Shown one piece after another: positions 1,580-57,272 of a stretch of 64,000 bases of DNA; the first letter of the stretch is position 1, and every line of letters begins with the position of its first letter. The translations under genes were made by a program, and so were the position numbers. Origin of the DNA: Eledone cirrhosa (Eukaryota); NCBI GenBank assembly GCA_964016885.1, contig OZ024753.1:19282001-19346000 (forward strand). Reading direction: 5' to 3'. The notes under the pieces were generated by a model. The model worked only from the letters and a program-made list of their open reading frames with translations, made no database searches and was not told where the DNA came from.

Positions 1580-1856
1580 ATAACGAAGGAATTGTGATAA
1601 GGAACCAGATGGACCATAACTCAGCAGAGTTCTCAATACTTATGGTAGTAGAGTGGGTAATAGGAGAAAGTATGACCCCGACAGAAAGATCTCAAGCCGT
1701 TTCGACGGCTATTTCTGTCCAGAAATAGCCGTCGAAACGGCTTGAGCTCTGCCCTCGGGGTCATACTTTCTCCTATTACTCACTCTACTACCCTAAGTAT
1801 TGAGTACTCTGATGCGTTATGGTCCTTCTGGTTCCTTACCACAACTCCTTCGTTAT
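1580..1856. mobile_element. Family A PLE pseudo-LTR pair in head-to-head palindrome, each arm carrying the 3' half of an HHR
   Basis: Arms 1580-1716 and 1718-1856 are reverse complements. The minus arm reads directly into the PLE ORF. The plus arm ends ...cttcgttat then (TA)n. Motif tagccgtc-GAAA-cggcttgagctc...ggggtc. Confidence 0.85.
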
Positions 1857-2086
1857 ATATATTATATATATATATATATGTGTGTTTATATATGTATATA
1901 TATGTATATATGTATATATATATATATATATATATATATATATATTAATATATATATATATATATATATATATATATATATATATATATATATATATATA
2001 TATATATAAATATATATATATATTTATATATATATATATATATATATATATATATATATATATATACACAGAAATTTCCGTGAAAT

Positions 2087-2937
2087 ATTCTTTAAGACTA
2101 TACAGGGCATAGTAGTTTTTCTGAATTGAAGGATGAGTATTTTATACTTTATTTTATTCTTAATTAAGGCTCTATGGATTTTTCCGTGGATTTCACCAAA
2201 TTCTCTGGATGGATCTATATCCTGATTCTTTTTGAATAGTGTTTGAATAGTACCTAGTGCGCCTATGACAATCGGGACAACCTTGATTTTATGGCAGTTC
2301 CAAATCATTTTTAACTCACACTTTAAGTCCTGCTATCGGTTAATTTTCTTCCTCTCCCTTTCTTGCACTCTTGTGTCAAATGGGCAGGCTACATCTACAA
2401 ACAGGCACGATCTTTTTTCCTTGTCTAAAACCACCAGGTCAGGCCTATTGTGTTCTAATTTCTCGTCCGTCTGTATCCTAAAATCCCATAATATCTTCAC
2501 CCGATCGTTTTCTATCACTGACTCTGGCTTATGCTCATACCACTTCTCAGAATGTGGTAAATTGTTTACTTTGCATAGATGCCAGTGGATCACACTGCCT
2601 ATCAGATCATGCCTCCAGCCTTTATAGTGAGTCTCGGCTAGGTGTTTACACTCGGATACAATGTGAGCCACAGTCTCCTCTGTCTCTCCACAGACCCTAC
2701 ACAGTGGGCTAGCCTCCTCCTTGTAAATATGGTGTTTCACCCACTTCGTTCGGAGGGCTTACTCTTGCGCAGCCATTAGCATTCCTGCTGTAGCCTTTTA
2801 AAGGTCTCCTCTTTTTAGCCAGTTCTATGTCTGTGGATCTCTAAATTTAGTTTTCTTAAAGAAGGTACTATGAAGGGATTTTTCATGAATGTTGCTCTTC
2901 CTCCTTGTTGTTATTTGCTCCTTGGACATCCTTGGTC
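2087..2937 (-). mobile_element. R4/Dong-like non-LTR retrotransposon 3' fragment (CCHC knuckle plus restriction-like endonuclease)
   Basis: ORF 2333-2740 has CRVCGETEETVAHIVSEC, RHD, KILWDFRIQTD, NRPDLVVLD, VDVACPFD; continues VVPIVIGALGTI. The 5' truncation abuts (AAT)n. Confidence 0.85.
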
Positions 2938-3050
2938 TATTATCATTATTATTGTTGTTATTATTATTATTATTATTATTATTATTATTATTATTATTAT
3001 TATTATTATTATTATTATTATTATTATTATTATTATTATTATTATTATTA
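2938..3050. repeat. (ATT)n microsatellite
   Basis: Direct reading. Confidence 0.95.
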
Positions 3051-3830
3051 TGGTTTGGCAATATCATTAGAGACGCCATGCTTTGCACCACATAATTATG
3101 GCCCTTTACGTTCTGAATTCAAATCCCACCGAGGTTACCTTTGCTATCCATCCTTTCGGGGTCGATAAAATAAAGTGCCAGTCTCGTACTAGCGTCGATT
3201 TAATCGACTTTCCTATTCCCACAAATTACTGACCTTATGCCTATATAAGAAACCATTATTATTATAGCAATGAAGGGCGGTGAATTGGCAGTATCGGTAG
3301 AGGGTCGGACGCCATGCTTTGACGCATAGAGTTAGGGCCCTTGCCATTCTGAGTTCAAATCCCGCCGAGGTTAACTTTGCCTCTCATCCCTACGGGGTCG
3401 ATAAAATAAAGTACCAGTAATGTACTGCGTATTTGCTGGCATTGTGCCAATAGTAGAAACTATTATTATTATAGCAATATTATTATTACAATTGGCGGTC
3501 AATTGGCAGTATCGGTAGTGCGTTGCACGCTATGCTTTCTAGCATAGTTACATCCCTTTAAGGTCTGAGTTCAAATCTCGCCGAGGTTAACTTTGCCTTT
3601 CATCCTTACGGTGTCGATAAAATAAAGTACCGGTAATGTACCGGGTAATTGCTGGCCTTGTGCCAAAAGTAGAAACAATTATTATATTAACAATAAAGTA
3701 CCAGTAATGTACTGGTTATTTGGTGGCCTTGTGCCAACAGTAGAATCAATTATTATATTAACAATAAAGTACCAGTAATGCACTGGCTAATTGCTGGCCT
3801 TGTACCAAATGTAGAAACAATTATTCTAAC
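3050..3830 (+). mobile_element. Tandem cluster of three tRNA-derived SINEs plus repeated tails (Meta-domain-like core)
   Basis: Copies at ~3050-3260, 3276-3470 and 3493-3690 have B-box-like gagttcaaatccc, core tttgcctttcatccttacggggtcgataaaataaagtaccag and tail ggccttgtgccaaaagtagaaacaattatt. Tail-only repeats run to ~3830. Confidence 0.85.
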
Positions 3831-3864
3831 AATAAGAATTTTTAACCCATAAAATATTGTTAGG

Positions 3865-54262: not shown

Positions 54263-54544
54263 ATATATATATATATATATATAATAACTGTGATATCACA
54301 GAAACTTTCTCAGTTGCTTTTATTTCTGTTTAGCTGTTTCATTCGTCTCTTTCAATATTTGCATCCCTGGCAGTCGTATCTTTCACACCAGATATATTAC
54401 GTATTACTTTATTACTACCCACTTCCTTCTCCTTATATTTATCTGTTTGTCGCGATATGTGTAGATACCTTGCAACCGTGACAACCTTATTCTTATTTAG
54501 GGTATCCAATATATCATCTTGACAATATCGTCATAGTTTTAATT

Positions 54545-54760
54545 CGTACTGTAGGTTGCATTTTCAGGGTCAAAATAGGGTTATTTCTCTCAGGAACTCC
54601 ACTACGGTAGTTTTACTGCAGACCGTAGGGTGTATTTTATAGGCCAAACTAACGTTATTTCCTCCAAGAACTCCGCTACGGTTGTTTTACTTCAGACCGT
54701 AGAGTGTATATTATGGGTTGCACTGACGTTATTTCTTGTAGGAACTCTGCTAACGTAGAA
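54545..54760. repeat. 74-bp tandem repeat, about 3 copies
   Basis: ttatttc at 54581, 54655 and 54729. Confidence 0.75.
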
Positions 54761-55719
54761 TCTTCCTTCCCTTCATGGCTGATATATTTAGAATAATGTC
54801 TCTCATTGGCTTATCATTTCTCTCCTTCAACAAATGGCTGCAGGAATCTCGATGTTCATCTTAATTGTAAAATTAATGATGAAATGGAACTTTCTCTACA
54901 TTTCTCTCCCTATGTTCCGGAAGGAGACCTTCAGGCTAACAACAATGTTGATGCTAATCCGACAGATATCCTTATTCATTTCGACTATATTTCACATTCT
55001 GCCAGGAGATAGTATCTGTAATAGAAATACGAATGGAAACATTGTTGTTTGGGTTCGATTTGACGAATTTCCCTCTTGGTTCTCGAATGACGTATCTGAT
55101 CTTGTTGATCGATTCGATCTATCAATCGATATTTATCGTCTAACTCCTTCTCATATATTTTTCCCAATTCTCATTTCTTTAATTCATACATTCAATGGTT
55201 TCATATTTTACTGTGTTACATAATTCTATAACTTTTTTTTCGTTTTGTTTTGTTTTATTGTAAACTTATGTGTATTAATGTGTTTATGATACGTGAGAGA
55301 AAGAAAGAGTGAGTGTGTGAGATAGAGAGTGTGTGTGTATGTGTGTGTGTGTGTGGCTGTGTGTGTGGCTGTGTGTATGTGAGAGAGAGAGAGTGTCTGT
55401 GTGTGTGTATGTGAGAGAGAGAGTGTGTATGTGTATGTATGTGTGTCTGTATGTCTGTCTGTTTGTATGTGTGTGTGTGTGTGTGTATGTGTGTGTGAGA
55501 GAGAGCATGTAAAGGTGAAAGATAGAACGATAAACCTGACCGGGAGAGAGACAGCTAGTCAGATAAGACGTTTTATAGGGCTTTTCATATTAATCATATG
55601 TAACATGTATTGTAAAACCGTATACAAATCATTCCTTGAACAATATGTCGACTGCTTGTTATGTATCTTGAGCGACATTACTGTTAGTATTTGGTTCATA
55701 ATATATCAATGCTGGTTGA

Positions 55720-56095
55720 TTTAGGCACAAAGCCAACAATTTTTTGGTAGAGGAAGTCACTTGAATGACCCACATAAGAATGAAAGGCAAAACAAACCGC
55801 GCCAGAATCTAATCTCAGAACCTAAAGGACTGTAACTCTATGCTGCAAAGCTCTAGCAATATTGCCAATCCACCACCATTTATACAGTAATAATGACTTT
55901 TTGCTTAGGCACGAAGCCAAGGGTAGGGAGGGGGTATGTCACCTAATCGATGCCAGTGTTTTACTGGAACAACATTTTATCGACCACATAAGGAAAGGAT
56001 GAAAGGCAGACCTCGATGGGATTTGAACTCAGTCACAACATAAAGGGCCATAACTGTATGTCACAACGCCTCTTGTCCGACGCTCTAGGGATATT
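55720..56095 (-). mobile_element. Two decayed tRNA-derived SINE copies
   Basis: ggcacaaagccaac...tgaaaggcaaa...ctcagaa...actctatg, similar to the reverse complement of the 3276 family. Confidence 0.65.
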
Positions 56096-57062
56096 GGAAG
56101 TCATTAAAATGTATTTACATCCACACATTGTTGAGCATTCTGTTATATTTTGATGTAAAACTATCAATTTCTTTCGGGTTAATTGAAAAACTACAATATA
56201 ATCAATATTTCAATAACCACACACATAAGAAACTCGCAATAATCACATTAAAGAAAAAAAATGATTATACAAGATAATTAAATAAAACTATTAATTTAAG
56301 TTTTAAAAATTATGTAAATTCAATCGCAATTGTGTTTTTAAACTAAATAAACACAAATCTAAATTGATTCATTTTCAATTTAGTTCGGATTAAAGTCAGA
56401 TATCATTGTTTTCTATTTCACAAGTAATTTCTCTTTATTTTACTTATCTCAGAGATAATACAGCTTATAAAATGTATCGTTTATTTTTTTCTCGTTCATG
56501 AAATCTGTACGTCTATATATACATATAAACCCACTTATACACACCCACACACCTATATATATATATATATATATATATATATAGATGTATAGACATCTAG
56601 ATGTATATGCATATAGCTAGGCATATAGATATACATACATGTATATATATATATATATATATATATATATATATATATATATATATATATATATATATAT
56701 ATTTATGTATATATATATAAATAAATTATCGAGAATCGGAATCTCGGCCCACGAAATAACGAAACACAATCATCGAAATGCATGGCAAAGGGCTCAATAG
56801 TTTGGATAAACCAGAGCTATAACTATCGTTTAAATACCAACACATAGAGACAATGCTTAAAATCATTCGCACAGCCGAAAAAACGGCAAGGAAAATTCGA
56901 GTCATACAAATAATAAAATAATAAATTAATAAATGAAATATATATATATATATAAGTATATAATATATGTATATATATATATATATGTTTATATATATAT
57001 AAATAAATATATAAATATAAATATATATATGTGTATGTATATATATATAAATGTATATATAT

Positions 57063-57272
57063 ATAGGAAAAGGTATGACCCCGACGGCAGAGCTCAAGCC
57101 GTTTCGACGGCTATTTCTGGACTAAATTAGAATGTTTTGCCTGGTAAAATTCTTTTACCAGGCTAACAATTCTAATTTATCGGCTAGATTTACACTCAGA
57201 ATGGCAAGGGTAGTAACTCTATGCGTCAAAGCATGGCGTCTGACTCTCTACCGATACTGCCAATCCACCGCC
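57063..57272 (-). mobile_element. Family A HHR 3' half with long hairpin, joined to a SINE 5' half
   Basis: 57124-57179 hairpin aaattagaat...gcctggtaaaa/ttttaccaggc...attctaattt; SINE head at 57195-57272. Confidence 0.7.

Follow-up and report, generated by a model that had tools for sequence, protein, structure and literature searches.

Within 64,000 nucleotides of the Eledone cirrhosa genome (assembly GCA_964016885.1, contig OZ024753.1, positions 19,282,001 to 19,346,000 of the forward strand; the whole stretch is called the window and is numbered from its first letter), several copies of one repeat terminus lie head to head as palindromes, which raises the question of where such copies turn back on themselves and how the two halves came to be joined. 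An earlier note on this DNA had assigned the repeat to the pseudo-long terminal repeat (pLTR) of a Penelope-like element (PLE) carrying a hammerhead ribozyme and had proposed that complementary strands of the ribozyme stems act as the DNA joint. We favor another reading, to which we give a probability of about two in three: the palindromes would be short head-to-head copies of the PLE terminus, made of two joined cDNAs, that stop at a base in loop II of the ribozyme which is likely the 5′ end of the capped RNA.

The repeat, family A, was present in the window in eight pieces, namely, six head-to-head palindromes, one unfolded copy at 25533, and one cut-off copy at 57063. The palindromes reported at 1580, 21237, 31867, 33411, 42836, and 53467 were confirmed, as was the single unfolded copy, and six of six lacked the 5′ core half of the hammerhead. 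Positions in the terminus are numbered from the A of TCAGTCC (+1, window position 25581). The unfolded copy (25470 to 25640, plus strand; short ended, not inverted) retained the whole type I hammerhead (25534 to 25625, plus strand), with stem I CCCC/GGGG, the core TTGATAA with a U3-A8 pair (25538 to 25544), stem II formed by 25548 to 25553 (CGGCTA, −33 to −28) and 25591 to 25596 (TAGCCG, +11 to +16), a loop II of 37 nt (25554 to 25590; 37 to 39 nt in the family), GAAA at 25599 to 25602 (+19 to +22), a stem III with a palindromic loop (25602 to 25620), and a predicted cut after 25621 (+41). Core boxes, three stems, and an NUH cut site all matched the type I assignment made before, and cggcta/tagccg was rightly taken for stem II, given a compensatory CAGCTA/TAGCTG in one of six aligned natural copies and 97% of cells paired; over the stems of the aligned natural copies, 96% of cells were paired. 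Stem II covariation (n = 6 rows) lay within the shuffle control, the sample being too small to beat it. The core across subfamilies was YUGANAA, in which N7 alone varied freely and some copies had C3 opposite A8, followed by GAAA and a GUC cut site. The hammerhead of the unfolded copy had been called decayed; we found its 113 bp 100% identical in 40 of the 40 full-length matches scored, and TTGATAA corresponds to the U3-A8 core, a described PLE hammerhead variant (PMC4209133; here and below, statements on published work refer to the available parts of the papers cited).

Arm starts were scored in 196 arms from places listed by two patterns 3′ of the ribozyme (100 of the 107 regions planned, together with 60 search loci). 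These were the first listed places on contig C1, found with exact anchors of 25 to 33 nt (young copies), and each start was taken as the maximal extension, so that starts at −4 to −1 are in part due to overlap with the partner arm. Most arms (123) started at −5 to +9, followed by 15 at +10 to +18 and 23 at +19 to +36; the rest comprised 9 at −27 to −6, 1 in the stem II 5′ strand, 1 at −44 to −34, and 24 that extended past −45, the farthest by more than 1.4 kb. Compared with a uniform spread over −44 to +36, this clustering was significant (P ~ 1e−54). Breakpoints were not spread uniformly along the pLTR, uniformity being the outcome that the earlier note had set against its own model, and they clustered at a site that it had overlooked. 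A second, small cluster of arm starts, immediately 3′ of the stem II 5′ strand, lay at about −21 to −27 (window 57124 to 57179 and loci L146, L201, L206, and L230).

The base at which arms stopped was the A in (T)YAGTY, which resembles an initiator and is preceded by a TATA-like box 29 to 31 nt upstream. RNA polymerase II core promoters combine an initiator, YYANWYY, with a TATA box near −30, and this consensus was matched in family A as well as in a sister family, family C. In the unfolded copy, the TATA-like box TATTTAAA at −29 (25552 to 25559, plus strand; function predicted) overlapped the stem II 5′ strand at its end, and the initiator-like TCAGTCC (25579 to 25585, plus strand), at which arms stop, would mark the transcription start. 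The TATA-like 8-mer began at −29 to −31 in unbroken copies and was exact in the youngest subfamily. L050, a natural copy of 3.8 kb outside the window, contained 66 initiator-like sites, +1 among them; a correctly spaced TATA-like 8-mer was found at +1 and at one AT-rich site in the 3′ untranslated region (UTR), a third listed match having no upstream reference sequence. The stop at +1 is independent of inversion: 59 distinct listed places at which an arm is joined directly to (TA)n started at +1 or a few T or C bases before it, and the arm bearing an open reading frame (ORF) at window position 1717 started at +5. The divergent subfamily (33411 and 53467) had the same stop register despite a different loop II (TTAGTTCGGATC). 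In the TTCAG subfamily, 11 of 24 informative arms carried a nonnative G at −1 (5 carried the native C), and the share of G among nonnative bases was higher at +1 (12 of 29) than at other starts (10 of 53; P = 0.027); in L1, an extra G marks capped full-length insertions and is read as a copied cap (PMC11702581). Together, junctions and motifs suggest that the RNA of the element likely begins at the pivot.

A strong stop of the reverse transcriptase (RT) or an RNA processing cut within loop II, instead of a transcription start, could also produce the +1 boundary and would leave the joining of two cDNAs otherwise intact. The weakness of the G signal in one subfamily, the second cluster near −21 to −27, and the derivation of the start site from DNA junctions and motifs and not from RNA are in keeping with this explanation. 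We consider it improbable, however, as 24 of 196 arms passed +1 freely, loop II is predicted to be single stranded by the time the stem II 3′ strand has been reverse transcribed, G was enriched at −1, and family C followed the same boundary logic before stem I, with a perfect TATA box at −30.

Family C (L162/L332, L282-L286, and L359-L366) served as a natural control. It is a second Hydra-clade PLE with DKT in its ORF and with long and short ends like those of family A, and its canonical hammerhead starts at the likely start site. Its 3,749 palindromes were centered just 5′ of an intact CTGATGA core, 1 of 50 listed palindromes reaching clearly upstream of YYA/G(+1) by eye, and in three unbroken copies TATAAATA stood at −30, −30, and −29 of the initiator-like site. 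The arms of family C keep the whole ribozyme and pivot before stem I, and the pivot therefore follows the promoter and not the stems. The tail of family C also has TATTGAGTAC in common with that of family A.

Genome-wide counts (3.0 Gb) addressed the claim that stem strands form the joint; they were obtained with exact patterns of differing length and are only roughly comparable. Between two stem II 3′ strands, 11,823 palindromes had 0 to 30 nt and 1,401 had 31 to 55 nt, which gave 13,224 exact palindromes centered in loop II, versus 0 palindromic matches of the reversed control patterns, an excess that chance does not explain. The pattern of a stem II strand swap, in which the mirrored 3′ strand leads straight into loop II, matched once in the genome, and this lone match proved to be a loop II palindrome carrying an unrelated insert. 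Among the matches listed with centers of 31 to 55 nt, clear swaps numbered 0 of 50, with one ambiguous by eye; these centers consisted of fillers and A/T runs between arms ending near +1. In the window, five centers had been placed in the stem II region 5′ of GAAA; they lie in loop II instead, 0 to 10 nt on the 5′ side of the stem II 3′ strand, whose mirror image makes them appear symmetrical about stem II. The sixth center, that of 42836, does lie in the stem III loop as proposed, as a blunt join of +27 to +32 with no overlap.

Pivots 3′ of stem II numbered at most 980, and 50 listed among these comprised, by eye, 15 stem III strand swaps, 11 loop III palindromes, 9 cases of an AGCCGT/ACGGCT alternative hairpin, and 15 others. 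Use of stem III, loop III, or the alternative hairpin was exact in 35 of these 50, far above random joining, and together with window copy 42836 this speaks for stem strands as joints; pivots in stem III and loop III formed an enriched minority of roughly 4 to 5% of short palindromes. That stem strands join most inversions is nonetheless very unlikely, since the whole class amounts to 980 versus 13,224, stem II swaps are all but missing, and in family C the pivot lies outside the stems. Deletion between direct repeats created by the palindrome could moreover have produced the stem III class, slips of this kind having been seen between two copies of AGCCGTCG, and stem III and loop III pivots may in part be such later deletions. 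The proposal that stems II and III serve as the joint is thus not supported for stem II and holds for stem III and loop III in a small minority of all palindromes, about half of the 980. In L070/L115 and L149/L204, 23 nt had been deleted between the two direct AGCCGTCG repeats that lie within the ribozyme.

Arms had two 3′ ends, at about +57 (short) and +137 (long), the tail of family A being about 80 nt. A long arm was paired with a short arm in 93 of 96 palindromes and in 156 of 166 in a larger, partly selected set, which includes loci picked by center length and is hence biased; independent choice would give about half. The two arms of a palindrome agreed at 94 to 97% of diagnostic sites, compared to 34 to 76% expected at five of six sites. 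Among 64 joins, 22 had an overlap of 1 to 4 nt, 8 were blunt, and 34 contained filler. Of these 64, 37 had the long arm as the fuller one and 16 the short arm, the two being equal in 11, and in the larger set the long arm was fuller in 61 and the short arm in 42. At the pivot, runs of A or T of up to about 20 nt were present, for the most part in the subfamily whose +1 is natively preceded by TTT (L100, L177, and L218 among them); we guess that they arose by slippage of the RT or a polymerase at the RNA 5′ end.

The window copies illustrate this pairing. Palindrome 21240 to 21448 consisted of a long arm (minus strand, 21240 to 21375), a short filler copied from an arm, and a short arm (plus strand) from +1 at 21388; in 31869 to 32076, a short arm (minus strand) and filler preceded a long arm (plus strand) through +1 at 31938. 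The divergent subfamily was represented by 33412 to 33608, with a long arm (minus strand) from about +10, a short arm (plus strand) from +1 at 33546, and an overlap of 3 to 4 nt, and by 53467 to 53644, with a short arm (minus strand) up to +1 at 53529 and a long arm (plus strand) from about +10. Palindrome 42836 to 42977, the loop III blunt join of the minority class, had a short arm to +27 and a long arm from +32. The copy at 1580, listed before among the palindromes, was not a free one: its left arm continued for about 2.26 kb through an ORF and beyond the window start. Within the window this PLE arm occupied 1 to 1717 (minus strand), from about +5 of the initiator-like site through the tail and a broken RT ORF (pieces at 1022 to 1639 and 486 to 980); it extended about 540 bp past the window start, was 84 to 86% identical to L050, and adjoined an inverted mini arm (1717 to 1853, plus strand) that ran from +2 to the long (tail) end and then into (TA)n. 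The eighth copy (57063 to 57179), absent from the earlier note, had a short arm (minus strand) that passed +1 (57123) and pivoted near −25, followed by an inverted loop II stub cut by another repeat.

Long and short pairing and arm identity could also result from snap-back, in which a long-primed cDNA folds at its 3′ end and copies itself, after which the hairpin is cleaved at the short site by the endonuclease; antisense self-priming (PMC3846280) is a variant of this scheme. The more frequent fullness of the long arm and the common overlaps of 1 to 4 nt (22 of 64) likewise suit it, and given the long-arm bias, snap-back may contribute. It predicts, however, a fuller long arm in every case, whereas the short arm was fuller in 16 of 64 and in 42 of 156, including window copies 33411 and 53467. 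Both arms reached +2 or beyond without overlap in 56 of 166, some with a nonnative base on each side, no fold was predicted for the cDNA end (+1 to +12), and the pile-up of starts fits a promoter on the sense strand. We therefore regard snap-back as an unlikely source of the palindromes at large and agree with the preference for two cDNAs expressed before, which is supported by the pairing in 93 of 96 and the fuller short arm in 16 of 64.

In the two-cDNA reading that we prefer, a core promoter would lie inside loop II, and its nesting there would explain why loop II is as long as 37 to 39 nt. The 5′ terminus of the transcript would carry the GAAA/stem III half only and be unable to fold a whole hammerhead alone, while the 3′ pLTR of the same RNA would carry a complete one. 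A (TA)n target would be cleaved on both strands by the RT-endonuclease, which would start one cDNA near +57 and another near +137, both internal sites of one sense RNA; with priming in the 5′ terminus, both cDNAs would run off the RNA end after 60 to 140 nt. The two cDNA 3′ ends would then likely be united by end joining, bluntly, through 1 to 4 nt of overlap, or with copied filler, hammerhead stems providing microhomology in a small minority only. The purified protein of another PLE has two internal RT start sites, and both cut target strands are extended in vitro (PMC11167929). A broader version, which we advance tentatively and with slightly more doubt than conviction, is that a promoter in loop II lets transcription split the ribozyme, so that the 5′ half is harmless and only the 3′ copy cuts, that PLE inverted termini in general originate from a dimeric RT that primes twice on one RNA, and that the genome records U3-A8 cleavage in vivo.

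Several observations weigh against parts of this account. The TATA-like box was degenerate in several subfamilies (TATTCATA and TATTTATT). At (TA)n-joined ends, the excess of G was not significant (14 of 59 versus about 9 of 71, by eye; P = 0.08), and in the TTTAG subfamily G was found in 1 of 55, its place being taken by T runs (more than the native three T's in 24 of 55); the loop of this subfamily has 2 nt more, by which the start would be shifted into the T's. Starts at −27 to −6 (9 of 196) included five near −21 to −27, with both arms of one copy counted, that +1 does not explain. Ten of 166 pairs were long-long or short-short, arm concordance would also follow from differing periods of activity of the subfamilies, and snap-back, too, predicts a bias to the fuller long arm. 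Constrained to the hammerhead, the ribozyme folded at −23.3 kcal/mol, compared to a predicted minimum of −24.9, and unconstrained folding gave another structure. Finally, about 5 of the 23 ends at the ribozyme cut site, described next, could be CpG-decayed +40 ends.

Arms joined to (TA)n and starting at +35 to +45 were tallied by eye from 64 listed places minus four tiny inversions and one tandem duplicate (statistical tests used n = 60). Of these, 23 of 59 started at +42, the base after the predicted cut, compared to 1 to 6 at every other position, and this indirect evidence makes it likely that the U3-A8 ribozyme cleaves some RNAs in vivo. Tail-bearing arms seldom started at +41 to +43 (about 5 of 236), and ends at the cut site were roughly a tenth as common as +1 ends or less.

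Amplification of one or a few founder palindromes, in the manner of a miniature inverted-repeat transposable element (MITE), is a further conceivable origin, and some junctions did recur (6, 4, 4, and 3 of 64). Junctions were nevertheless diverse, with 49 distinct centers among 64, the commonest being seen 6 times, and a single MITE founder is therefore ruled out; the identical junctions that the earlier note had named as counting against its own model were not found. One junction occurred across subfamilies and in both long/short orientations, and noninverted and ORF-bearing copies shared the stop site. A few founders are accordingly about the least probable of the origins considered here. 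Target-site duplications were unreadable in the (TA)n flanks. Outside family A, the loci scanned held 110 other fold-back segments, drawn from many (TA)n-flanked repeat families and with varied centers; the mechanism proposed for family A may be frequent in the genome at large.

Family A is a Hydra-clade PLE as assigned by ORF motifs and target, and the PLE identity proposed for the repeat was upheld by these motifs, the (TA)n target, and the pLTR structure. L050 (about 3.8 kb) comprised a partial pLTR, the ORF, a 1.2-kb 3′ UTR, a pLTR, and an inverted 5′ partner. Its ORF (3987 to 6392, minus strand; 801 amino acids [aa] from stop to stop) encoded RT with GIY-YIG at the C terminus in one frame, with DKT at 199, YRDD at 430, and VIY...YIG at about 676 to 690. 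A CxCX5C-type linker was read as CNCPDRSIF in L050 (its last C being F in that copy) and as CNCLNKEAC in family C; CxxC and CxH were present as CNLC and CKH, with no CCHH by eye, and RWR, not RWK, occurred in the upstream frame of L050, L020, L022, and the window copy and in family C. Elements were inserted into (TA)n, both outer palindrome ends joining it, and the structure of endonuclease-positive PLEs was matched in the partially tandem pLTR, the inverted 5′ partner, and the tail at one end. Pfam and PDB sequence searches of the PLE ORF gave no match. A non-LTR retrozyme, which consists of head-to-tail tandem units with a whole hammerhead each (bioRxiv 10.64898/2026.07.22.740005), was rejected, the copies being head to head with half ribozymes.

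Compared with described Hydra-clade elements (PMC8557442), family A was alike in its C-terminal GIY-YIG, DKT, CxCX5C-type linker, CxxC, and CxH, with RWR in the place of RWK. It also resembled them in targeting (TA)n, in bearing a hammerhead close to the 3′ end and an inverted 5′-truncated partner, and in having a tail at one end. It differed in length, these elements being "generally <3 kb" and family A about 3.8 kb with its 1.2-kb 3′ UTR, and in its hammerhead, those tabulated there having C3-G8 and a loop II of 3 to 10 nt, whereas family A has U3-A8 and 37 to 39 nt with promoter-like motifs. With PLE minimal hammerheads (PMC4209133) it shared U3-A8 covariation, a long stem II, a short stem I, a palindromic loop III, and opposite-strand pairs 100 to 700 bp apart; its stem III, in contrast, is a stable 5 bp, and most copies hold only the ribozyme 3′ half. 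Adineta vaga Penelope (PMC3846280) has head-to-head inverted pLTRs, junction palindromes, an optional tail, and a pLTR TATA box and initiator as well. Its palindromes were read as antisense-template self-priming, whereas the statistics of family A favor a sense-RNA 5′ end and two primed cDNAs, and the available text of that study ties the pivot to neither the initiator nor a ribozyme loop. Anolis Poseidon PAc, studied in vitro (PMC11167929), is alike in two internal RT start sites that define a tail and in cutting and extension of both strands; it is a predicted dimer and uses uncleaved RNA as its main template. The available parts of that report give no account of inversion and no reads ending at the hammerhead cut site, whereas family A genomic copies pile up there. 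L1 twin priming (PMC11702581) likewise involves two primed cDNAs, nonhomologous or microhomology-mediated end joining, and an extra G at cap-reaching ends; its halves abut on the RNA, whereas those of family A would copy the same 5′ segment and so give a palindrome.

Taken singly, inverted pLTRs and tails are already known, as are promoters in the pLTR and U3-A8 cores. In the available parts of PMC8557442, PMC3846280, and PMC4209133, the origin of PLE inverted repeats, the RNA strand copied, and in vivo hammerhead cutting are left open, and in the open-access full-text literature we found no paper linking the PLE inversion point to a start site or ribozyme loop, and no loop II-nested promoter, strict long and short pairing, or cut-site footprint. 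More than 13,000 natural junctions now point to a sense RNA with a fixed 5′ end and two primings, against the published antisense self-priming, and provide exact coordinates for one candidate start site, two candidate RT start sites, and one predicted cut site. They would also account for many fold-back repeats with (TA)n flanks, a large class that could be mistaken for MITEs. A promoter in a ribozyme loop, if true, would be a simple way of keeping a self-cleaving motif off the RNA 5′ end.

A general repeat search of the window was dominated by (TA)n, and an Rfam scan gave no hammerhead among the best 150 of 254 rows, nearly all being microRNA models on simple repeats. The flanks of L050 contained, at 567 to 2138 (minus strand) and 7388 to 8218 (plus strand), another Hydra-like PLE ORF (a piece of 523 aa) and a fragment of an RT of the long interspersed nuclear element type. 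In the window, near-identical copies of another repeat were found beside (TA)n at 30099 to 30190 (plus strand) and about 50910 to 51001 (minus strand); this repeat carried a canonical CTGATGA...GCGAAAC hammerhead-like motif with a long stem II/loop.

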